A stretch of 64,000 bases of DNA, from positions 56,258 to 120,257 of the IMG/VR virus record IMGVR_UViG_3300021440_000015; one strand, 5' to 3'. Source of the DNA: a virus. How positions within the stretch are numbered: position 1 is the stretch's first letter; each line of letters starts with the position of its first letter. Below, one piece after another: positions 3,744 through 64,000 of the stretch. The position numbers and the translations under genes are program-made. The notes under the pieces are model-generated. The model saw only the letters and a program-made list of their open reading frames with translations. It ran no database searches and was not told the DNA's origin.

Positions 3744-4286
3744 ATGTACAAATCAAACATAGTATCGGTACTCAACGCTGTTGACAGCAGTTGTGTCAAG
3801 CAACTCATTCTGTCAAAAACTGATAAAGATGCTGGGAATGTGTTAAATGAATTCTTTGAAATGGCTTTGGGATTCCAACCTTTTTATGCTTTCATGCCCA
3901 CGCGACTAGCTCATTTCGTAGACAGGATTCATTCTGACTCTGCATTGCGTGATTTTGTTTACAACACAGCTGAAAGTATGGTCTTCAAACTGAGATGTTT
4001 AAAAACATCTGAAGGTGTTGATGAGTACGCAGAGCTTGTTAAAATAATAGCATCCATACCTTCAGTGGCAAGAGATCACAACAATCATCTTTCACCAGAA
4101 GCTTTTCTTTCGACCGTGGATATCGCCAGTAGATATCGAGACATCACAGGCAGCAGCACATCCTCTTCTGTAAAGCTGCAAGCGTTTCTTTACGCCAATC
4201 CCATTATTGTGATGTTCTATGTGTTATCTCAACATGTAAATGAACTTCAGACATTTAACGAAATCTACATCAAGGATAGAAAATAA
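3744..4286 (+). CDS. hypothetical protein
   Basis: 180-aa ORF in tightly packed operon. Confidence 0.7.
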   Translation: MYKSNIVSVLNAVDSSCVKQLILSKTDKDAGNVLNEFFEMALGFQPFYAFMPTRLAHFVDRIHSDSALRDFVYNTAESMVFKLRCLKTSEGVDEYAELVKIIASIPSVARDHNNHLSPEAFLSTVDIASRYRDITGSSTSSSVKLQAFLYANPIIVMFYVLSQHVNELQTFNEIYIKDRK

Positions 4287-6703: not shown

Positions 6704-8854
6704 TTAAACGCGTGTTGCGTCTGTGGCTCCGCTTAAAATAGATGAGTTACCAACTATACCTTCTAATATATTACCGACTAATGTCCATGACAGTGAACCA
6801 GATGTGGTTGTGTCATGTATTATAGAAGCCCATTCTGCTGAAGAAGTTAATCTATTAAGTCTGAGCATTTCTTTAGCCATTCTTAATTTAGCCTTAGGGA
6901 AGGAAAAGAACTGGCTGTAAAGATCTTGACCAGCGAGAACTGCTAAATAGTCATGCAGGATATTATCTTCATCTAAAGTCATCTCAACTGTACTTCCAAA
7001 AATACCTGATGCGGTTAAAGGCATATGCATAATAGAAGACAGATCAACAACTGTAAAGCTTACATCAAGGGCCAGTGCAGTACCTTTTGTATTGAAAGGT
7101 AGATTAGACGTGCCTCTTGTTATAGTGAGGGATTCTATCATACCTAGTTTAATTTGACATCTACCCCTGTCGTACAGCTGACAGATCATAGGGCTACCAT
7201 AAGCTGCCCTGCCTACTGACATAGGTAATGTACCAGCTAATAGCATACACAAAGGTATGTATATGTTCTGCATTTGAGACATCACGTTTCCATAAGGACT
7301 TATGAGTTTTATTTTATAACTTCCTGATGGTAAACGAGCATTTGAATTTTGCCAGTGTTTGGGTATGTCTATATAACCAGCACTAGCCAGACCCATTAAG
7401 AAATTAGAAACACCGAAAGTCACGCTGCTGAGTCCGCCAGATACCATATCGCCTATGGCTCCTGTTACACTCTTAGCCATATCAGTTATAGTAGAGCTTA
7501 ACAGATTACCATCTGCCAACGAAAAACGTATGTCCCTTATACTAGATGCTGTGCCGTTTAGCGTAGAGGATATTTGAGATTCCACACTAACGTTAGAAAA
7601 AGATTCTGTGACACTCCCAGTATTATCTACTTTAAAGATAGCAAATTGGCTACCTTGTCTAAACTCAGCATTAAAATATTCAGCAAAACCAGCTGGTGGT
7701 TCTTTAACTTGACTATTTTCTTTGGATGATGAATCTATTCTAGGGTCTAATTCAGTTTGACTAGCCTTACCATCCGGTGTTTCACTTTTGGTTTTATAGT
7801 AATCGGAACCAAGCATGAACTTACTGTTAAGCCAATTCCCAAGATTACTGAATATATCATTCTCTCCTGGGTTAATATCAGTCAAAAGAACATCACTTCT
7901 TTTTTTCAAAAAGCCTTTATAAGCTGTAAGAGTGTCTTGTTTATTGGCTTCGTATTCAGCCATAAATACTCTATTAGCTGTTCTTTGGGCTTTTGAAGCT
8001 ATAGCGAAAACGTCTATGTAGTTAGCGTCATCTTCAGAAACACCAGTAAATAGATCAGGCATCAGACCTCTGATTTCTTTAAGATATTCTTTATCTAATT
8101 CAAAAGGCTGACCACCAGCTTTTTGTGCAGTTTCATCTCTAAGAACTTTAGGCATCAATCCTCTGTTAATAGCTAAAGTATTGACAAGCACATTAACAGC
8201 TGACCAGTACATATTCATAGTTGGTTTCAATGAATAGAACTTTGTTGTAGGTCTGCCAAATATGGCAGTGGTCACATTACCTAAGAACACACCTAAAGCT
8301 ATTAACGGAAATGCTCTGGCACCAATAAAGGTACCGGCAGCCTCACCTAGTTTATAAAAAAAGCTAATACCTCTGCCTGTTTTAGCTAAAGTAGCCATAT
8401 TGCTATCATAGGCTCTTGTTAAAAAGTTTAAGAGCCCATTAAACTGCGGAACACCAAATCTTAAAAAGATAGTTTGACTAGGGTCATCAATAGCTTCTGA
8501 ATAGTATCTACCCATACCACTATTTCTTACTGACCCCACTGTGGGTTCAGTAAATACACTTTTATTTTTTCCTTGTCTTATATCAGCATATGGTGTAAAA
8601 CCAGGTCTTGCATTCATCCCTATGTTGTTTCCAAGCTTAGTGCTTGTGAATTTTAAAGACGCTGAGGTGAAGTATCTGTTATAGATATCAGCCGCATCAT
8701 CTATTTCAGAATCTGAAACTAAAAATGCCTGTTTGACCCAAGCTGCATCTCTTTGCAATCCTGAAGAATCACTTACTACCTTCTTAATAGGAAATATAGA
8801 ACCACCATCTGGTGTTTCTACTATACCTGTATCTATAGTGATGTTGTTTGCCAT
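6704..8854 (-). CDS. virion structural protein (phiKZ gp182-like, tail/baseplate region)
   Basis: 716 aa, directly downstream of the giant tail lysin; synteny-based. Confidence 0.55.
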   Translation of the reverse strand: MANNITIDTGIVETPDGGSIFPIKKVVSDSSGLQRDAAWVKQAFLVSDSEIDDAADIYNRYFTSASLKFTSTKLGNNIGMNARPGFTPYADIRQGKNKSVFTEPTVGSVRNSGMGRYYSEAIDDPSQTIFLRFGVPQFNGLLNFLTRAYDSNMATLAKTGRGISFFYKLGEAAGTFIGARAFPLIALGVFLGNVTTAIFGRPTTKFYSLKPTMNMYWSAVNVLVNTLAINRGLMPKVLRDETAQKAGGQPFELDKEYLKEIRGLMPDLFTGVSEDDANYIDVFAIASKAQRTANRVFMAEYEANKQDTLTAYKGFLKKRSDVLLTDINPGENDIFSNLGNWLNSKFMLGSDYYKTKSETPDGKASQTELDPRIDSSSKENSQVKEPPAGFAEYFNAEFRQGSQFAIFKVDNTGSVTESFSNVSVESQISSTLNGTASSIRDIRFSLADGNLLSSTITDMAKSVTGAIGDMVSGGLSSVTFGVSNFLMGLASAGYIDIPKHWQNSNARLPSGSYKIKLISPYGNVMSQMQNIYIPLCMLLAGTLPMSVGRAAYGSPMICQLYDRGRCQIKLGMIESLTITRGTSNLPFNTKGTALALDVSFTVVDLSSIMHMPLTASGIFGSTVEMTLDEDNILHDYLAVLAGQDLYSQFFSFPKAKLRMAKEMLRLNRLTSSAEWASIIHDTTTSGSLSWTLVGNILEGIVGNSSILSGATDATRV

Positions 8855-16862: not shown

Positions 16863-17271
16863 AAAAAGGATAAAAAATGAGTTAAACGTATTCTCATTTT
16901 GTTATCCAATTGTCCTCTTAAATAGTAATATTTAAAGAGATTTTTCTTGAATTGCTGGAACATCCTAAAGTTAATCCACCACCGCTAGATGAAAATCAAA
17001 GCCAAGGTTTGAAAACGGATTAAATGAAACAATGGGTAATCAGCAGCTAAGACGCTAAAGTTGACTCTATAGTCAACCATGCGTAAAGTTCAACGACTAA
17101 CCCTTAAGCAAGGTGTAGGAGATAGTATCTCCGAAGTGGGAAACGCCCTACTGTTTATACAGAGGGTGAAGATATAGTCTGCTCCTTTGGGAAAGCCAAA
17201 GGCGGGTGTCTTAACACACCGGGTTACTTTATGATAGGTTTGAAACCGAACGACTGTAACTGGACAATAGG
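16863..17271 (+). mobile_element. group I intron 1 (ORF-less, IA-like) in RNAP beta'
   Basis: P AATTGCTGGAA, Q AATCAGCAG, R GTTCAACGACTA, S AAGATATAGTCT; 5' splice site after GAU with TTGTC guide; ends ...ctggacaatagG. Confidence 0.9.
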
Positions 17272-17277
17272 TTCGAT
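17272..17277 (+). CDS. 6-nt micro-exon (TTC GAT = Phe-Asp) of RNAP beta', exon 2
   Basis: Lies between the terminal G of intron 1 and the start of intron 2; restores GAD-FD-GD. Confidence 0.85.
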
Positions 17278-17616
17278 AAGTAACATTGTCGCATACAGAA
17301 GAAATTCTGTAATGAAAACTTCTTGAATTGCTGGAACTCCCTTAGAGCCTAATCACCACTGCGAGGCGAAAGCTAAAGCCAAGGTTTGAAAAGATTAGGA
17401 TTGGGTTATCAGCAGCGAAGCACCGTATAGGTGAACGTTCAACGACCATCCCGTAAGGGAGTAGGATCTAGCAGATCCGAAGTGGGAAGCATCTTATCAG
17501 ATAAAGCTGAAGATGGTGATATGGTCTGTTCCTGTATGAAAGTACAGGCGGGTGTCTGAGCACACCGGGTAAAGAGTGTAGGTTTATATAACCGAGCGAC
17601 TTTACTGGACAATAAG
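17278..17616 (+). mobile_element. group I intron 2 (ORF-less, IA-like) in RNAP beta'
   Basis: P AATTGCTGGAA, Q TATCAGCAG, R GTTCAACGACCA, S GTGATATGGTCT (compensatory P7 change relative to intron 1); GAU|AA...TTGTC P1; ends ...ctggacaataaG. Confidence 0.9.
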
Positions 17617-20986: not shown

Positions 20987-22344
20987 TAAATATATACAGT
21001 GAGGAACTGTATATGATTGAATGTAATACACCTAATTTTAAGATTCCAAAAGGTTACTCTAAATACAGAGTCTCGCCAGATGGAAAAGTTTTTTCGTTTC
21101 ATAAAGAAAAGTTTTTAAAAGGGTCTATAAATCCAGCAGGTTACACCAATATTAGATTAACATCCGATAATGGTGTAACATTAACTTGGGGATTGCATAG
21201 ACTGATAGCGTTTTGTTTTATTTGTAGTGATTATGAAAAGTTTGGTGAGTTGTATGTAAACCATAAGGACGGTAATAAACACAACAACGCACTTGAAAAT
21301 CTTGAAATCGTAACACCTAAACAGAACGTTGAACACGCAGGTCTTAACAACTTAAGTAGAAAGTGTTTACCTATTTTGGTAAGAGATGTTAAAAGTGGTT
21401 TGATATCGGAATACCCTAGCATCATTGAATGTTCCAAACATCTTGGTGTTAGTAAGGATACTGTTTTATACAGATTAAGATATCTAGGTAAGAGATTATC
21501 GCCATCTGGTCAACAATTCAAACTGAAGAAAGATAAAACACCTTGGGTTGAAATAAAAGATTTAGAAGAAGCGAAAAAACTTTACGGTAGGAACAAAAGC
21601 GTTGCGGTGAGAACATATCCAGCTATTGAAAGAATCACTATCTACAGTAGTTGTAATGAAGTATCGTCAAAATTAGGCTTAAGCGCAGGTTATGTTTCTC
21701 AGTTGTTTTACAACAAAGATCAGCCGGTTATAGATAATTTTATTCAGCTTAAACCTAATGATAATTCGATACCTTGGGTAACACACACAGATTTCATTGA
21801 AAGTTATGAAAATTTCACAGGGTGTAAAGTCATAACTGTTTGGAACTGTTTGACAGACGAAAGAAAAATATATAAGTCTGTCACAAGTTGCGCTAGTGAT
21901 AATGGTATTAAAATAACTACCTTACATTGGCGTTTAAACCAAGAAGCAAAGGTTCACCGTGACGGTAGAAAGTATGTGTATTACAGTCAGTTAAGTCCTT
22001 TGGAAAAGAAACTTTTCAAAGAATCTCTTTGAATTGCTGGGAACTCTTGTTAGATCACTGAACCACTGCGAGGCGAAAGCCAAAGCCAAGGTTTGAAAAT
22101 CAGTGAGTAGAGACAATCAGCAGCTAAGACGCTAAAGTTGATTCTGATCAACCATGCGTAAAGTTCAACGACTAAGGTTTTATCAACCTGTAGGGTACCT
22201 AGCGGTATTCGAAGCGGAGAGCACCCTACTGTATACAGAGGGTGAAGATATAGTCTGTTCCTGTATGAGAATATAGGCGGGTGTCTGAGCACACCGGGTA
22301 AAGAGGGTAAGCTGTGAAGCTGAGCGACTTTACTGGACAGTAAG
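20987..22344 (+). mobile_element. group I intron 3 carrying an HNH endonuclease in its 5' (P1) loop
   Basis: P AATTGCTGGGAA, Q AATCAGCAG, R GTTCAACGACTA, S AAGATATAGTCT; ends ...ctggacagtaaG; splicing joins KDD|GKRVNFVQIQMSH in frame (RpoB HDDANR-equivalent). Confidence 0.9.
21013..22032 (+). CDS. intron-encoded HNH homing endonuclease (NUMOD4-like N-terminus, NUMOD1-like repeats)
   Basis: YRVSPDGKVFS; LHRLIA; VNHKDGNKHNNALENLEIVTPKQNVEHA; three Y.S..E/C.S..LG repeats. Confidence 0.9.
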   Translation: MIECNTPNFKIPKGYSKYRVSPDGKVFSFHKEKFLKGSINPAGYTNIRLTSDNGVTLTWGLHRLIAFCFICSDYEKFGELYVNHKDGNKHNNALENLEIVTPKQNVEHAGLNNLSRKCLPILVRDVKSGLISEYPSIIECSKHLGVSKDTVLYRLRYLGKRLSPSGQQFKLKKDKTPWVEIKDLEEAKKLYGRNKSVAVRTYPAIERITIYSSCNEVSSKLGLSAGYVSQLFYNKDQPVIDNFIQLKPNDNSIPWVTHTDFIESYENFTGCKVITVWNCLTDERKIYKSVTSCASDNGIKITTLHWRLNQEAKVHRDGRKYVYYSQLSPLEKKLFKESL

Positions 22345-53567: not shown

Positions 53568-55226
53568 ATGAGTATCAAGTCTGATAAATGGATTCGTGAG
53601 AATTCTCTGTTGCGGGACATGATTGTTCCGTTTGTGATGGACAATGAAAACAAGATCGTTGTTCATGGTGAGGAAAAGAAAGTACCTAGCTTTGGCCTTT
53701 CCTCTTACGGTTACGATGTACGCCTGGGTCCTAACTTCAAGTTCTTTCGCGGACAAGAAGCTTACCTGGTGCGTAGCAGCCCTAATTCTGGCGGCGGTCT
53801 GTCTGTTAACACACCTGTATTGGCAAGTACGCTAGGTCGCTCTATCGACATCGCTGATTTTACCAACACTTGTGAGTTGGCTTCTTTTGAAGACCTAGCT
53901 TGGATCGAACTTCCAGCAAAGAGCTTCTGTCTGGGACACACCATCGAAAAAGTGACTGTTCCTCGTGATGTCTCTGTTGTTTGCATGGGTAAATCCACTG
54001 TGGCAAGAGCTGGCATCATCGTTACTGTAACGCCTCTCGAATCTGAATGGTGCTTTACAGGTGATACTGAAGTGGCGTTGGCTAATGGCACGTCAATGTC
54101 TTTTAAGGAAATGGAAGAACGTGCAAAAACCGGCGAGCGTTTCTTTGGATACACATTTAGAAATGACGGAACTATCGGAATAGAAGAATTGTTGAATCCT
54201 AGAAAAACTAGGGCTATGGCAGATCTGGTAGAGGTAACGTTAGACACCGGGGATGTGATACGATGCACGCCGAATCATAAATTCTTAACTAAGAAATTTG
54301 GTTACGTCGAAGCTCAAAATCTAGAAGAAAACATTTCTTTGATGCCTCTTTATAGATATGTCGATAAAAAAGGATATGAGAGCGTGGCCGGCCCTGTTCA
54401 ATATAACACCAGACCTATCTACACTCACAAATTATCAGATCAATGGAATCTTGAAAACCACATCTATCCATTAGTAAATGGGCATGTCCGACATCACATT
54501 GATTTTAATCCAAGAAATAATTACCCTACAAACATTATTAGGATGTCCGATGAAGACCATCATAAGGTTCATGAAACTAAAGAAGGTTACACAGAAGAAC
54601 GTAAGCGCATAGCGGCAATTTCTAGAGAGTCTTTTTATGAAAAATGCAGAACCATTGCAAATTTCAGAGAAATTATGTCAGAAGTATTTAGCAAAGCTGC
54701 TAGAACGTTCTGGGATAGTCCTGAACATGCAGAAACAAGAGCAGGCTGGTTGAAAGCTCACTCTGAACCAAGGCCATATAGACTTAAGTATTTTGACAGG
54801 CAGGTGGTTTTAGATGCTTTTAAAGAATACGGGTCTATAAGGCAAGCAGGCAAAGCGTTGAAAACGAAAGCAGATACATTAGCTAGAAGGTTCCCAGATA
54901 TTGTAGCACAAGCCAGAAGTTTGGGTTACATACCTATGAATCATACAGTAAAATCTGTTAAAAAACTGGTTGAGAAAGAAGATGTTTATTGTCTCACCGT
55001 TCCAAACACGTCAAACTTTGCTTTAGATGCTGGAGTATTTGTTCATAATTGTGGAAATATCACATTGGAAATCACCAACACTACAGATCTTCCTGTGCGT
55101 ATCTACCCTGGCATGGGTATCACTCAGCTTCAGTTCTTTCAGTCGGATGAACAATGTTTGGTGAGCTATGCCGATCGGAATGGTAAGTATCAAAACCAAC
55201 CAGCTGAGCCTGTCCCCCCTATGTAA
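53568..55226 (+). CDS. dcd: dCTP deaminase containing an intein
   Basis: MSIKSDKWI, SFGLSSYGYDVRL, GKSTVARAG, TPLESEW|intein|CGNITLEI, SYADRNGKYQNQ. Confidence 0.92.
   Translation: MSIKSDKWIRENSLLRDMIVPFVMDNENKIVVHGEEKKVPSFGLSSYGYDVRLGPNFKFFRGQEAYLVRSSPNSGGGLSVNTPVLASTLGRSIDIADFTNTCELASFEDLAWIELPAKSFCLGHTIEKVTVPRDVSVVCMGKSTVARAGIIVTVTPLESEWCFTGDTEVALANGTSMSFKEMEERAKTGERFFGYTFRNDGTIGIEELLNPRKTRAMADLVEVTLDTGDVIRCTPNHKFLTKKFGYVEAQNLEENISLMPLYRYVDKKGYESVAGPVQYNTRPIYTHKLSDQWNLENHIYPLVNGHVRHHIDFNPRNNYPTNIIRMSDEDHHKVHETKEGYTEERKRIAAISRESFYEKCRTIANFREIMSEVFSKAARTFWDSPEHAETRAGWLKAHSEPRPYRLKYFDRQVVLDAFKEYGSIRQAGKALKTKADTLARRFPDIVAQARSLGYIPMNHTVKSVKKLVEKEDVYCLTVPNTSNFALDAGVFVHNCGNITLEITNTTDLPVRIYPGMGITQLQFFQSDEQCLVSYADRNGKYQNQPAEPVPPM
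54051..55049 (+). mobile_element. 333-aa intein with internal HNH-type endonuclease
   Basis: Block A CFTGDTEV, block B CTPNHKF, block F DVYCLTV..NF, block G FVHN followed by Cys; HHIDFNPRNNYPTNI...H. Confidence 0.9.
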
Positions 55227-55841: not shown

Positions 55842-56264
55842 ATGAAAGAACATGACCATATTAAACTGATGGCGTTGACTCTGTTCAACAATCAGTTTAA
55901 CAGAAACCTACGCGTTACAGATTTTGATATGATCTGTATTGCTAAAAAAGCTGATTACCCTATTGCTTTTGAAGCATACACCACAAGAGCAGATGACTTT
56001 CTACGTTTGCGTATTTATTTAAAGATAGGTAAAGCCGATAATCTACTTCCTTTTAAACTGGAAGTAAACGCCCCTTATCACAACACCACATCCGAAGATG
56101 AAGTTTGGGTGACTCTGGGTACCTTAGACGTTTATCATCTTGAGTCAGGCCACCTGAAGGAACAGTTCCTTTATGACTGTCCTGAACAAATGTTGAATTT
56201 AATCCTAGCTGAAGATGGCACACCTATCTTAGGCGAGAATGGTGAATATCTGTTAACAGAATAA
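55842..56264 (+). CDS. hypothetical, possibly tail-associated protein
   Basis: GAGG RBS before ATG 55842; C-terminal LILAEDGTPILGENGEYLLTE. Confidence 0.55.
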   Translation: MKEHDHIKLMALTLFNNQFNRNLRVTDFDMICIAKKADYPIAFEAYTTRADDFLRLRIYLKIGKADNLLPFKLEVNAPYHNTTSEDEVWVTLGTLDVYHLESGHLKEQFLYDCPEQMLNLILAEDGTPILGENGEYLLTE

Positions 56265-60428: not shown

Positions 60429-61077
60429 AATCGGGAAGTTGATCGCTATCGAAGGTATCGATGGCGTTGGTAAAGCCACTCAGGCTAAGCTACTGGCTGA
60501 AAACATGTCTAAGCTTGGCTTGAAAGTTTTCCTCTCTGGTTATCCTCAATACCAATCTGATACAGGTAAGTGCATCGCAGCTTATCTTAACGGAGAAGGT
60601 AAAGATCTGTCCAGAACAGAAATCTCAGATCTTTACACAGCTGATCGCGCAGCTCATAAAGATGTGATCGAACAAGCTCTGTTAGAAAATGATTATGTGA
60701 TATTAGACAGATACATCTTGTCTAACATTCTGTATCAACAAGCTTTAGCTGAGCACCCTGAAGACGCTATATACATGAAAAAGTATACTGAATATTCTGA
60801 GTATGTCCACTCAGCACTCAGACCAGCCGACATCACTTTTGTACTTACTCTGTCAGAAGAAGTAGCTGCTCAACGTGTGCTTCAAAAAGGTCAGCGTGAT
60901 TACACAGACAAGAAGCAAGATGTCCATGAGGCTAATAGCACTCTGATGTCTAAAGTGACTAAGCTGTGTAATGGACTTCCAGATAACTACTATAGTAAAA
61001 TCATCAAGATAGATTGCCACGGTTCTATCGACATGGTCCAAGCCAGCATCTTGATGAAGATCGAAGGTCATGATTGA
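60418..61077 (+). CDS. tmk: thymidylate kinase
   Basis: IAIEGIDGVGKATQ P-loop, LYTADR, ILDRYILS; AAGGA RBS before ATG 60418. Confidence 0.88.
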   Translation: MSNKIGKLIAIEGIDGVGKATQAKLLAENMSKLGLKVFLSGYPQYQSDTGKCIAAYLNGEGKDLSRTEISDLYTADRAAHKDVIEQALLENDYVILDRYILSNILYQQALAEHPEDAIYMKKYTEYSEYVHSALRPADITFVLTLSEEVAAQRVLQKGQRDYTDKKQDVHEANSTLMSKVTKLCNGLPDNYYSKIIKIDCHGSIDMVQASILMKIEGHD

Positions 61078-61618
61078 TCTGCTCAGTAACCGTACCTACA
61101 CAGGTATAGGCAACAGAGATACTCCTCAGTTCTATCTAGACGCTATGACTAAAGTAGCTGCCCTTCTGGAGCAGAAACAATATATCTTGCGTTCAGGTGG
61201 TGCTGATGGAGCAGACTCAGCGTTCTATCAAGGTGTTAGAAATAAACTGAATTGTGAAATCTATCTACCCTGGAAAGGTTTCAACGATTTAGATTATCAA
61301 TATCACATACCAAACGAAGCTTACAGAATCCTGGAGAACGTTTGTCCTTACATGGATAAATTGACCCCAGCTATTCTTAAGCTATATGGTAGAAATGTAC
61401 TTCAGATACTAGGGAATGATTTGAGCCATCCTAGTAAGTTTGTTATCTGTTATACCAGAGATGGTTATATAGGTAGAGGGACTACGAGTACAAGAACTGG
61501 TGGTACTAAGATCGCTATAGATTTGGCATGTTTGTATAATGTACCTGTGTTTAATCTCAAGATCACAGAACACTATAACCGCATAGCTAATTTCTTTAAT
61601 GGCGATAGCGTCAATTAA
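61070..61618 (+). CDS. SLOG-superfamily (DprA-like) protein
   Basis: YTGIGNRDTP, LRSGGADGADSAF, IYLPW.GFN, RN..QILG, TGGT..AI. Confidence 0.75.
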   Translation: MIDLLSNRTYTGIGNRDTPQFYLDAMTKVAALLEQKQYILRSGGADGADSAFYQGVRNKLNCEIYLPWKGFNDLDYQYHIPNEAYRILENVCPYMDKLTPAILKLYGRNVLQILGNDLSHPSKFVICYTRDGYIGRGTTSTRTGGTKIAIDLACLYNVPVFNLKITEHYNRIANFFNGDSVN

Positions 61619-61728
61619 AAATACCCTGTGTGACCAGGGTATTTTTTTATTCGTGTTTGTAATAGAATGCGGAGAGTAAGCCGGATTAGCTCAGGGACGG
61701 ATACTGTTTAAATCAGTGTAAGAACACC

Positions 61729-62241
61729 ATGACTAAAAACGCAAACACGATAATAAATCTTGAGGAACCTTTTTCATATCTTTGGAAAAGAGGATATCTG
61801 CAAACACACCCATCTGGCCGAAAATACGTATGTCTTTTTAACAACAATAGCTGTAGAACATTGATAAGCTATGCCCGTTATCTAATGTCTGTTAAATTAG
61901 GCTGTTTGATACACAAAGATTTGACTGTGGATCACATCAATAACGACAAAACAGATGATCGAGTAGAAAATCTTCAATTGCTGTCTTTGTCTGAAAATAT
62001 AAACAAGGAAGCTAAAAGATACATAGACGAAGTACAGATAAGACATAATTTAAAATGTCAAGTTTGCGATAGAAACTTCGTGATAACAGACAGACTTTAT
62101 AAAATGAAACGTAAACAAACAGATAAAACTTTTTGTAGTAATTCATGTTCAACAAAATTTCACAAAACAAAAAAAAGGATTGTCATAGGTTGTCTGTTCG
62201 ATTCACACCCGTGGCACCAATCCTTTTCCAGAATAATTTAG
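61729..62241 (+). CDS. free-standing HNH endonuclease with C-terminal Zn-finger
   Basis: YARYLM, VDHINNDKTDDRVENLQLLS..EN; CQVC...FCSNSC. Confidence 0.85.
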   Translation: MTKNANTIINLEEPFSYLWKRGYLQTHPSGRKYVCLFNNNSCRTLISYARYLMSVKLGCLIHKDLTVDHINNDKTDDRVENLQLLSLSENINKEAKRYIDEVQIRHNLKCQVCDRNFVITDRLYKMKRKQTDKTFCSNSCSTKFHKTKKRIVIGCLFDSHPWHQSFSRII

Positions 62242-62284
62242 TGATAAATGATTCTAACTGACTACATCGTGAGATATAGATATT

Positions 62285-62373
62285 ACCAGGATGCCCAAAT
62301 AGGTAAAGGGAACGGATTTAAAATCCGTCGACTGGAGACGGTCTTACGGGTTCGAGTCCCGTTCCTGGTACCA
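62285..62373 (+). tRNA. tRNA-Leu (UAA) with encoded CCA
   Basis: Acceptor accagga/tcctggt-A-CCA; anticodon arm acgga-tttaaaa-tccgt; long variable arm; T arm acggg-ttcgagt-cccgt. Confidence 0.92.
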
Positions 62374-62960
62374 TTTAACCTAAGTAAATCGGAATAGACT
62401 TTATCGTATCGATGGTAACTAACAAGTCGCTGCTTAGTAAATCTAGTGTTTAAACATTTCTTAATGTGCGTATATCATTGCGGATTGCGGAGTTAAGTTA
62501 ATAGATCGCTTGCGGGCGTAAGGCTAGGGTGCAGGTATTGACCATTGGTAACTTAGGTAAACGTACTATCGGGACGTTAGCGTGATAACAAAATACACGC
62601 ACGATGGAGCAGTATAAAGTGATCGGTATTTTCACTTAGTTGATAAAACAAGGAAGATATAAACTGTCGATCTAGGACACGGTTTCCCAGAGCTGTGTTT
62701 GATGCTTTTAAAATCCCCTGGGATCATGCATGCTGACCATTGTTCAGGCGCGATGTGGCTCTAGCTTCGAGGGTTAGTACCAAAGCAAGCAGGCGATTCA
62801 CACGTCTTTATTATAATAGGTTGTGGTTATCTACCTTTGTGATATGATAACAAGTTAGCACTCAGGTGTTTGCCTGTAGCAGATTAGATAGACAGAAGTC
62901 ATTTAGTCTGCTATGGGAAAATCCCTTTCTAAAAGAATGAGGTCACATAAACTTCATTTG
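62374..62960 (+). ncRNA. candidate large structured ncRNA 1
   Basis: ORF-free, multiple hairpins and long-range complementarity (acctaagt/acttaggt; atcgcttgc/gcaggcgat). Confidence 0.5.
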
Positions 62961-63030
62961 AGCCTTATCTATCTGATGAGTCCTAAGGCTTTAAACACAA
63001 GGACGAAACACATCACAAGTGTGTAATAGA
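62961..63030 (+). ncRNA. type I hammerhead ribozyme with pseudoknot
   Basis: Stem I tctat/ataga; core CTGATGA; stem II gtcc/ggac; GAAA; stem III acaca/tgtgt; cleavage triplet GTA (63023-63025); agcctta pairs with loop II taaggct. Confidence 0.9.
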
Positions 63031-63626
63031 AAGAGGTGCGCTCACGATATTAACCTGCCTTAACTTTTTGTTAGGAGTAGAAGGTGGTCTAACCAACCGC
63101 CAAATCGTACGCCCTATGGATAAAGCTTGTATCGACTACCCTTGGTCGGGAACTTTATGAGCTTTATCTTTGGGAAGTTGTAAACTTTGGGATTGATCAC
63201 CCCAGAGAGCAGCCTATAAGCTATCTTGAAATACAGATAGCTTTAGAGTGCTTAGGTATCAAAAATACAGCGAGATTCTCAATTGAGAACTCGGGTGTCT
63301 TCAGTGTTATGTTGATGAATTAAAACACTGTCGTATTAAGGCTCTGTGCTTATTATAGCACAATCATCTTAACCCTTACCTGAACTACTGGGTATGTGGC
63401 GATTGAGTTAAACAGATGTAGCTTATCCATTCACCAGGTTTTGTTAACCGGTAACACGAGTCGGTGTTATAAATATCTTGGATGTGGTGACTGACACATC
63501 CTTCTCTATCTTGTAATAAATAGAGAAACAAAGCCGTCTGGTATAGACGAGTGGTGAAACTGGAGCAGCGCTGTTCTGCGTAGAAAGTTTACACACTTAA
63601 CATGTTCGATTCATGTTGGCTTTGTT
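63026..63626 (+). ncRNA. candidate large structured ncRNA 2 ending in a tRNA-like fold
   Basis: ORF-free run of about ten hairpins; terminal aacaaagcc/ggctttgtt stem enclosing aacatg-ttcgatt-catgtt T-arm. Confidence 0.55.
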
Positions 63627-63759
63627 CTTAATTAGGGACAGTTTGTTGATGCAAGTGATCAGTCTACCCAGACTCGGTTGTCACAAGCAGATACAAATTG
63701 TCCCGCCTTTATTTTTTTACCCGAAATTATTTGGCTTTAACTATATCGATGGTGCTAAA

Positions 63760-63981
63760 ATGGATTTTATTATAACAACACATTTGGCTTTTGTAATTTT
63801 TGGTTTTGTCTTAACAGCTATCTGTGCTTATCTTTTTTATGATGAGAGAGGCGTAGACTTCAGTGCTACCACAGGTGGTGTTTTGATAGTGGTATCTTTA
63901 GCCCCTTTGTTGAATATATTTTCAGCTCTGGTGTTATCGATGGTGGTTTTCAGAGAGATAAAAAAGAGGTTTAATAAATGA
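63760..63981 (+). CDS. small two-helix membrane protein
   Basis: MDFIITTHLAFVIFGFVLTAICAYLF...LLNIFSALVLSMVVF; upstream extension overlaps the structured RNA. Confidence 0.6.
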   Translation: MDFIITTHLAFVIFGFVLTAICAYLFYDERGVDFSATTGGVLIVVSLAPLLNIFSALVLSMVVFREIKKRFNK

Positions 63982-64000
63982 TGATTGGTAACGAAATAGT

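Follow-up and report, generated by a model that had tools for sequence, protein, structure and literature searches.

The 64,000-nucleotide stretch of phage DNA considered here (the window; positions 56,258 to 120,257 of IMG/VR record IMGVR_UViG_3300021440_000015, i.e., the right-hand 64 kb of a contig of 120,257 bases with an estimated completeness of 44%) carries near its right end, at window positions 62961-63030, what is, to judge from its sequence, a genuine type I hammerhead ribozyme with a pseudoknot between its loop II and its 5′ flank. This ribozyme probably (with a likelihood of roughly 60%) serves as a self-removing 5′ leader located behind a phage promoter, and would thereby leave a 5′-hydroxyl (5′-OH) end on a structured non-coding RNA. 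The anatomy of the element, its conservation and covariation, the promoter-like motif that precedes it and the folding of the downstream RNA are all directly supported by the present analysis. The coordinates of these features are compiled in Table 1.

The conserved core of the ribozyme is complete, including the pairs G62980-C63004 (G10.1-C11.1) and A63008-U63024 (A15.1-U16.1). As in type I hammerheads, stem I (5 base pairs, bp) is open, stems II (4-5 bp) and III (6 bp) are closed by loops, and nucleotide 17 of the cleavage triplet G63023-U63024-A63025 follows U16.1 and is not a G. Stem III, formed by 63008-13 and 63019-24, consists successively of A-U, C-G, A-U, C-G, A-U and U.G pairs. An initial annotation of this DNA had listed all core nucleotides, three stems and a GUA triplet, together with an exact complementarity between AGCCUUA (62961-67) and UAAGGCU (62984-90). 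Direct reading of the sequence confirmed each of these elements at the coordinates given for them, the complementarity amounting to 7 exact Watson-Crick pairs where pseudoknot-stabilized hammerheads call for four or more. U62984 has two possible partners, A62967 in the pseudoknot or A63000, which would lengthen stem II to five pairs, and a G62960.U62991 wobble could extend the pseudoknot to 8 bp. The cut that had been predicted after A63025 is consistent with the rules of the hammerhead family, and would yield a leader terminated by a 2′,3′-cyclic phosphate and a downstream RNA beginning with a 5′-OH.

With a full descriptor combining the core and the three stems, a single match is obtained in the entire contig of 120,257 bases, both strands included. 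When a loose descriptor was run on 100 dinucleotide shuffles, the mean was 0.07 matches, with at least one match in 6 of the 100 shuffles, and none of the 100 satisfied the descriptor at the observed stem lengths. The bare pattern CTGANGA..GAAA is uninformative alone, since it occurs 18 times in the window. The ribozyme is identical in L002, a near-identical phage contig whose flanks differ at scattered sites, and the DNA contig of a third strain shows 0 differences at 62960-63036 and 7 at 63037-63072. More telling is L189, a metagenome contig of 3,973 bases that represents a distant syntenic relative, as its genes align with those at 59.0-61.6 kb of the window with 33-54% amino acid (aa) identity in the longer tblastx matches. 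The L189 block corresponding to window positions 62923-63010 shares ~81% nucleotide (nt) identity with the window, against ~65% for the neighbouring gene. Its stem I (UUCAU/AUGAA, vs. UCUAU/AUAGA in the window) exhibits two compensatory pair changes, its stem III is rebuilt and 2 bp longer, its cleavage triplet is GUC, and it scores 37.0 bits with the Rfam type I model, above the cut-off of 34. Core, stems, conservation and covariation in L189 thus all sustain the type I hammerhead call of the initial annotation. The stem III loop and its closing pair, U-CACAA-G (window 63014-63018, closed by U63013.G63019), are identical in L189 despite the rebuilt stem, which suggests from sequence conservation a possible role as a sequence-specific contact or binding site.

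An exact 7-bp complement between the 20-nt 5′ flank and the 17-nt loop arises in 2.05% of 20,000 composition-preserving shuffles. A broader comparison was drawn from type I hammerheads with a GUCC/GGAC stem II found in viral contigs (restricted to GUA sites), in metagenome contigs (restricted to a loop II of 12 nt or longer) and in genome contigs. Among the 54 unique ribozymes of the first set, a 5′ complement of at least 6 was confined to the window lineage and a 3′-tail complement of at least 5 was found in 11. Among the matches listed, which comprise 88 unique ribozymes, complementary runs of at least 5 link loop II to the 12 nt located 3′ of stem I in 25 cases (4.15 expected) and to the 12 nt of the 5′ side in 9 (3.26 expected). 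The register of the window places the end of the 5′ strand 3-7 nt ahead of CUGAUGA and the start of the loop strand 0-2 nt past stem II. It recurs with a Watson-Crick run of at least 5 in 6 of the 88 ribozymes among the matches listed, vs. 0.79 expected from permuted flanks; these six runs span 5-7 pairs, and no ribozyme of the 88 has a run of 4.

The pairs involved differ in sequence from one class member to the next (Table 1), i.e., complementarity persists although the sequence changes, in a sample that is small and biased. The spacer between the 5′ strand and the core measures 6 nt in L197 and L217 and 5 nt in the other class members, and an A-rich remainder of loop II follows the paired part in most of them, including L189, L197, L192 and L217. 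In an ungapped alignment of the window, L189 and L197, 85.7% of the cells pair, vs. 63.8% after shuffling, a level reached by 9 of 500 shuffles; sliding the partner brings the proportion to 61.9% or less. Clean compensations affect two pairs between L197 and L189 and one pair between L105 and L191. The comparative evidence therefore bears out the pairing of loop II with the 5′ flank, and a 5′-side pseudoknot, less common than its 3′ counterpart, has good support in these sequences, few as they are and biased as the sample is. Among viral contigs, patterns aimed at the 5′-pseudoknot class retrieved only L002, and the scan of genome contigs returned 7 type I parses, none of which has a 5′ pseudoknot.

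Several candidates were left out of the class. L146 and L219 contain GC-rich repeats and their relatives pair with the 3′ tail, the loop of L195 is complementary to both flanks, L280 has a closed stem I hairpin upstream, and the 5-nt loops of L071 and L297, which are AU-rich, would be fully paired. The loop II partner of the TAAAGG.. group is the 3′ tail, and L309 allows no type I parse.

The energetics of the window element are consistent with early formation of the pseudoknot. The hairpin joining the 5′ strand to loop II is the minimum free energy (MFE) structure of a nascent RNA starting at 62960 for every tested end from 62992 to 63030, at -10.2 kcal/mol. The order of the elements from 5′ to 3′ (first pseudoknot strand, stem I strand, core, first stem II strand, second pseudoknot strand, 10-nt A-rich loop, second stem II strand) would correspond to an H-type topology. 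As no linker separates stem II from the second pseudoknot strand, both helices could stack into ~11 pairs, and the third loop, 10 nt long and A-rich, appears long enough to cross the groove. According to Perreault et al. (2011; PMC3088659), the pseudoknot of a type II hammerhead is needed for fast cleavage at 0.5 mM Mg2+, pseudoknot mutants lost activity and compensatory changes restored it, and ~40% of hammerheads likely use a pseudoknot as a substitute for the loop-loop contact. The view of the initial annotation that such tertiary contacts lead to fast cleavage agrees with this type II case.

The second line of evidence lies immediately upstream. TTTGAGC sites revealed copies of a motif of ~45 nt, and a matrix built from five copies, the hammerhead copy being left out, retrieves from the contig 16 sites that score more than 8 bits. 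Thirteen of these exceed 20 bits, and every one of the 16 lies on the + strand; the - strand yields none (maximum 5.7 bits), and 50 shuffles gave a mean of 0.06 sites with a best score of 13.6 bits. Taken by itself, the 12-mer CCCTTTCTARAA shows no enrichment (18 matches vs. 13.6 expected). In keeping with jumbo-phage promoter motifs, which recur on the coding strand ahead of operons, 10 of the 16 sites are located 35-63 nt ahead of the start of a + strand open reading frame (ORF), and most lie 24-107 nt past the preceding ORF. The site of the hammerhead scores 23.2 bits and is exceptional in that no ORF is present within ~650 nt on either side. In L002 and L189, too, the hammerhead is preceded by the motif (21.0 and 11.4 bits, respectively), and both contain further sites. 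Several copies share ~18 conserved bases past TTTGAGC, which possibly represent a common 5′ leader. According to a review (PMC7598289), each jumbo phage that encodes an RNA polymerase has, ahead of its early operons, a conserved motif whose AT-rich block is centred near -10. The motif described here is comparable in being phage-specific, recurrent before operons and endowed with an AT-rich block; its assignment to a class (early or other) is tentative. Applying the spacing given there predicts a transcription start at ~62958-62962. Because the promoter-like motif overlaps the 5′ pseudoknot strand, the ribozyme is more likely to remove a 5′ leader than, as first thought, to cut a long transcript.

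The third line of evidence comes from the RNA that would be released. From 63026 to ~63612, there is no + strand ORF of at least 40 aa, one - strand ORF overlaps the region (63385-63531), and neither the sequence nor the ORF list revealed a small ORF with a ribosome-binding site past the cut site. The segment 63026-63300 folds at -94.5 kcal/mol, vs. -66.6 +/- 5.1 for shuffled sequences (z = -5.44; none of 200 shuffles folds as well), and several of its hairpins display compensatory differences between the window and L002. Contigs from RNA libraries of three studies cover ~63270-63565, and one contig covers 63043-63226. The contigs of the RNA libraries X4 and X17 miss 62891-63268 and those of X16 miss 62890-63042, so the ribozyme itself is uncovered; the start of the X16 contig at 63043, 17 nt past the predicted 5′ end, carries no evidential weight. 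RNA-library contigs share end points at 62889/62890 (two studies) and 63564/63565 (two to three studies) where DNA contigs continue, a weak hint that two discrete stable RNAs, at 62337-62890 and 63270-63565, flank the ribozyme and that the tRNA-linked RNA upstream stops short of the promoter-like motif, ~70 nt ahead of the ribozyme.

From these elements we infer the transcription start, the cleavage and the consequence of a 5′-OH end for the RNA as follows. Transcription would most likely start at ~62958-62962, within the promoter-like motif, so that AGCCUUA would be among the first bases of the RNA and could pair with the opening of loop II once position 62990 has been made. The pseudoknot helix would stack on stem II in the classical H-type manner, and this stacking would keep stems I and II side by side in the active geometry. 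Transcription of 63026-30 would then allow stem I to close and the RNA to cut itself after A63025; a leader of ~65 nt bearing a 2′,3′-cyclic phosphate would be discarded, and the folded non-coding RNA starting with AUAGA would keep its 5′-OH.

Table 1. Features of the hammerhead locus (window coordinates) and 5′-side pseudoknot pairs of related ribozymes.
Feature	Position	Strand	Basis or sequence
Recurring promoter-like motif (39-nt matrix window), conserved TTTGAGC at 62957-62963	62925-62963	+	
Sites of the motif	2501, 6379, 26849, 27956, 42173, 55578, 58963, 59376, 62957; 7 more in the left half of the contig	+	
Pseudoknot 5′ strand; shares its first three bases with the end of the motif	62961-62967	+	AGCCUUA
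Stem I 5′ strand	62968-62972	+	UCUAU; pairs with 63026-63030
Core (C3-A9)	62973-62979	+	CUGAUGA; read from sequence, Rfam model alignment
Stem II 5′ strand	62980-62983	+	GUCC; pairs with 63001-63004
Pseudoknot 3′ strand, opening of 17-nt loop II (62984-63000)	62984-62990	+	UAAGGCU
Remainder of loop II, A-rich third loop of the H-type pseudoknot	62991-63000	+	UUAAACACAA; sequence
Stem II 3′ strand	63001-63004	+	GGAC
Core (G12-A15.1)	63005-63008	+	GAAA
Stem III hairpin, 6 pairs	63008-63024	+	loop CACAA closed by U.G
Predicted cut at the A63025/A63026 junction	63025-63026	+	hammerhead rule: 3′ of H17 after U16.1
Stem I 3′ strand, sole part of the ribozyme predicted to stay on the downstream RNA	63026-63030	+	AUAGA
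Alternative partner of 62962-66, would lengthen stem I	63033-63037	+	GAGGU; nested MFE
Putative released non-coding RNA, 3′ end uncertain	63026-63565	+	ORF gap, folding, RNA-library contigs
5′-pseudoknot pair, window/L002 lineage			AGCCUUA/UAAGGCU
5′-pseudoknot pair, L189			AGCCUU/AAGGCU
5′-pseudoknot pair, L197			AGUCG/CGACU
5′-pseudoknot pair, L192			AGUGG/CCACU
5′-pseudoknot pair, L105			AAGGC/GCCUU
5′-pseudoknot pair, L191			UAAGGU/ACCUUA
5′-pseudoknot pair, L217 (260-kb viral contig; wider scan, any stem II)			CGUCG/CGACG

Several observations weigh against leader removal by a pseudoknotted hammerhead. The motif copy found at the hammerhead diverges from the consensus (28 of 39 positions, rank 12 of 16), and a start after 62962 would shorten the pseudoknot. 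The hammerheads of L105 and L191 follow stop codons and that of L192 abuts a tRNA-Leu gene; these placements are not promoter-proximal, which indicates that the 5′ pseudoknot is not tied to promoters. The window copy scores 16.1 bits with Rfam Hammerhead_1 (RF00163, clan CL00010) against a gathering score of 34, a low value explained by insertions of 14 nt in loop II and 9 nt in loop III; the gathering score is a detection threshold and not a property of the RNA. The comparative sample is biased, stem II having been fixed as GUCC/GGAC and two scans having admitted no loop II shorter than 12 nt. The pseudoknot sequence is invariant between the window and L189, a pair that thus provides no covariation; the AGC shared by the TTTGAGC of the motif and the pseudoknot strand would explain this invariance. 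The tally of positions changed on both sides in the three-sequence alignment partly reflects a 1-nt register offset of one sequence between the window and L189, the compensation between L105 and L191 is not significant alone (243 of 500 shuffles), and the class members need not be homologous past the universal core.

The alternative that survives best, although unlikely, is that an active hammerhead cuts read-through transcripts coming from an upstream tRNA-Leu gene and its ~520-nt trailing RNA, and either separates two stable non-coding RNAs or frees the tRNA unit. Indeed, a tRNA-Leu(UAA) is located 590 nt upstream on the same strand, and in L189 a tRNA-Asn, ~200 nt past the homologue of the 182-aa protein that adjoins the locus in the window, ends ~86 nt before the pseudoknot. 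The same neighbourhood is found in L192, where the ribozyme abuts a tRNA-Leu(UAA) and borrows the A of its CCA as first pseudoknot base, and at a greater distance in L217, whose tRNAs lie 1.4-2.2 kb upstream. The position of the L105 and L191 hammerheads after ORF stop codons is the classical placement between genes, and Perreault et al. (2011; PMC3088659) report prophage hammerheads that flank genes. Against read-through cutting stands the motif, which lies exactly before the ribozyme and is kept in L002 and L189. The RNA-library contigs of two studies, which end at 62889/62890 without a loose end where the DNA contig continues, add a weak hint in the same direction. Both roles are not mutually exclusive, and read-through cutting and leader removal may coexist.

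Improbable, in turn, is an arrangement in which an extended stem I, formed by 62962-66 and 63033-37 across a small internal loop, aligns the stems, or in which the pairings switch, the 7-bp complement then being a promoter or leader hairpin. The nested MFE structure of 62955-63040 uses the extension (-14.2 vs. -9.0 kcal/mol for the bare three stems), and the DNA variant T63037C converts its G.U pair to G-C, while C63039A in the same variant breaks the outer G-C of the extension. Conservation of the 5′ strand could be due to the promoter alone, given the overlap of this strand with the conserved TTTGAGC. However, L189 lacks a GCCUU complement past stem I and keeps the one in loop II, and complementary pairs occur at the same place in L189, L197, L192, L105, L191 and L217, five of these six differing in sequence. 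The duplex of the extension is also weaker than that of the pseudoknot (-4.1 vs. -8.0 kcal/mol), and its partner is transcribed last. In L197 and L217, stem I extends distally in a way that would bulge the 5′ strand; in the window, inspection by eye shows only 3 weak pairs for such an extension. The initial annotation, which stands with respect to the class, the pseudoknot and the predicted position of the cut, had overlooked both this competing pairing and the promoter-like motif. Finally, a fortuitous resemblance to a hammerhead, devoid of catalytic function, is very improbable, for it would accommodate the Rfam score of the window copy below the cut-off and a fold energy of the element indistinguishable from that of shuffled sequence (z = -0.81), but not the 0/100 shuffles at the observed stem lengths, the identity of the element in three strains with variable flanks, or the compensatory stem changes of L189, whose proteins are ~35-55% identical and whose copy passes the Rfam cut-off.

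Self-removal of a 5′ leader thus remains the preferred role, in the genome of an uncultured fresh-water jumbo phage that is, as its protein matches indicate, of the phiKZ-like, nucleus-forming type. This assignment follows from the Pfam matches of the window (phiKZ gp29PR, phiKZ vertex protein gp28, S80 prohead protease, a tail-tube family and DUF7193); the match to tubulin is weak. The stretch was recovered in metagenome runs from fresh-water or aquatic samples. Among GenBank phages, window positions 61000-64000 gave no match in a near-mode search and 62374-63612 none in a distant-mode search, and 62920-63060 gave only chance-level matches of 20-40 nt (E of at least 0.4). A protein-guided search with the adjoining 182-aa protein returned L002 as sole match. 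In the literature searched, no paper on hammerheads in jumbo phages was found. The initial annotation had proposed that the predicted end groups may stabilize the products or permit their ligation, which is speculative; a search of ~44% of the genome detected neither RtcB nor an RNA-ligase family, a negative that carries little weight.

Other features of the region and of the class members deserve mention. At the gathering threshold, Rfam reports no ribozyme in the whole window and only a tRNA and three group I introns (78-88 bits; 16882-17201, 17268-17548 and 21972-22277, +), the third directly preceded by an ORF resembling HNH/NUMOD homing endonucleases (21013-22032). At 53568-55226 (+), an intein splicing domain with a helix-turn-helix domain splits a dCTP-deaminase-like ORF. 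A T-arm-like hairpin with a TTCGATT loop occurs at ~63590-63606, before and over the start of ORF 63613-63981, without a tRNA call by ARAGORN, and the N-terminal third of this ORF may be non-coding. L002 (7150-7565, -) shares with window positions 62250-62373 only the 3′ part of the tRNA-Leu(UAA), i.e., the T arm and acceptor strand; upstream of the shared part are a group I intron (7357-7565, 59.7 bits) and then a second tRNA-Leu(UAA)-like 3′ portion without ARAGORN call, in what looks, from the sequence, like a recombination or homing junction within a tRNA gene. In L192, the tRNA-Leu(UAA) and the abutting hammerhead (3846-3934 and 3934-4010, +) overlap by the final A of the encoded CCA. L105 (7061-7126 and 8000-8049, both -) harbours a pistol ribozyme (46.1 bits, above cut-off) ~870 nt downstream of its 5′-pseudoknot hammerhead, with ORFs of at most 67 aa in between; an RNA excised by both would bear a 5′-OH and a cyclic phosphate. 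In L217 (1420-2296 and 2286-2385, +), a hammerhead with a long stem III is preceded by ~880 nt without ORFs and, 1.4-2.2 kb upstream, by two tRNAs; a distal stem I helix of 7 bp would turn its pseudoknot strand into a stem I bulge.

Host RNases are not known to reach the transcription compartment of phage nuclei, and protein-free maturation of 5′ ends could make sense there if these enzymes are indeed excluded. The locus is a simple case, in which three elements follow one another in a phiKZ-type phage: the promoter-like motif, the ribozyme of 65 nt and the non-coding RNA with its strong fold. Were the predicted start and 5′-OH end true, it would represent a natural ribozyme that, independently of host enzymes, sets where an RNA begins, and the 5′-side pseudoknot, a compact and near-scarless design, could serve engineered RNA parts. 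The roles of genomic hammerheads in bacteria and phages are largely undefined according to a review (PMC6765202), and leader removal, if true, would give the hammerhead of a bacterial virus a concrete biological role.

Both the hammerhead class and contacts of the pseudoknot kind are familiar, and the sole uncommon trait is that the knot lies upstream. A more ambitious interpretation can be put forward only tentatively and is somewhat doubtful, namely that this is a distinct, uncatalogued type I architecture (an H-type pseudoknot between loop II and the sequence 5′ of a short stem I, with five bases left on the RNA) that nucleus-forming jumbo phages use as a protein-free device for 5′-end maturation fused to their own promoters. 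With the type I hammerheads of phages and prophages that contain a pseudoknot (RF00163; PMC3088659), the window element shares the core, an open stem I, an intergenic placement on the coding strand and the replacement of the loop-loop contact by a Watson-Crick helix. It differs in the partner of loop II, which is usually the 3′ tail (25 of 88 ribozymes among the matches listed) and here is the 5′ flank. In type II hammerheads, in which loop I pairs with the tail located 3′ of stem II, a strand that continues stem II likewise pairs beside stem I (PMC3088659); the window element would be their counterpart by circular permutation, with the chain open where they have loop I and joined at stem II. 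Its loop II has an extra A-rich tail of 10 nt, and its stem I is open, unlike theirs.

Synthetic insulators such as RiboJ consist of an engineered hammerhead based on a satellite RNA and placed between a promoter and a gene. By analogy, the hammerhead located right behind the predicted start would similarly remove the leader and leave a defined 5′-OH, with the difference that the arrangement is natural here and that its product is a non-coding RNA.

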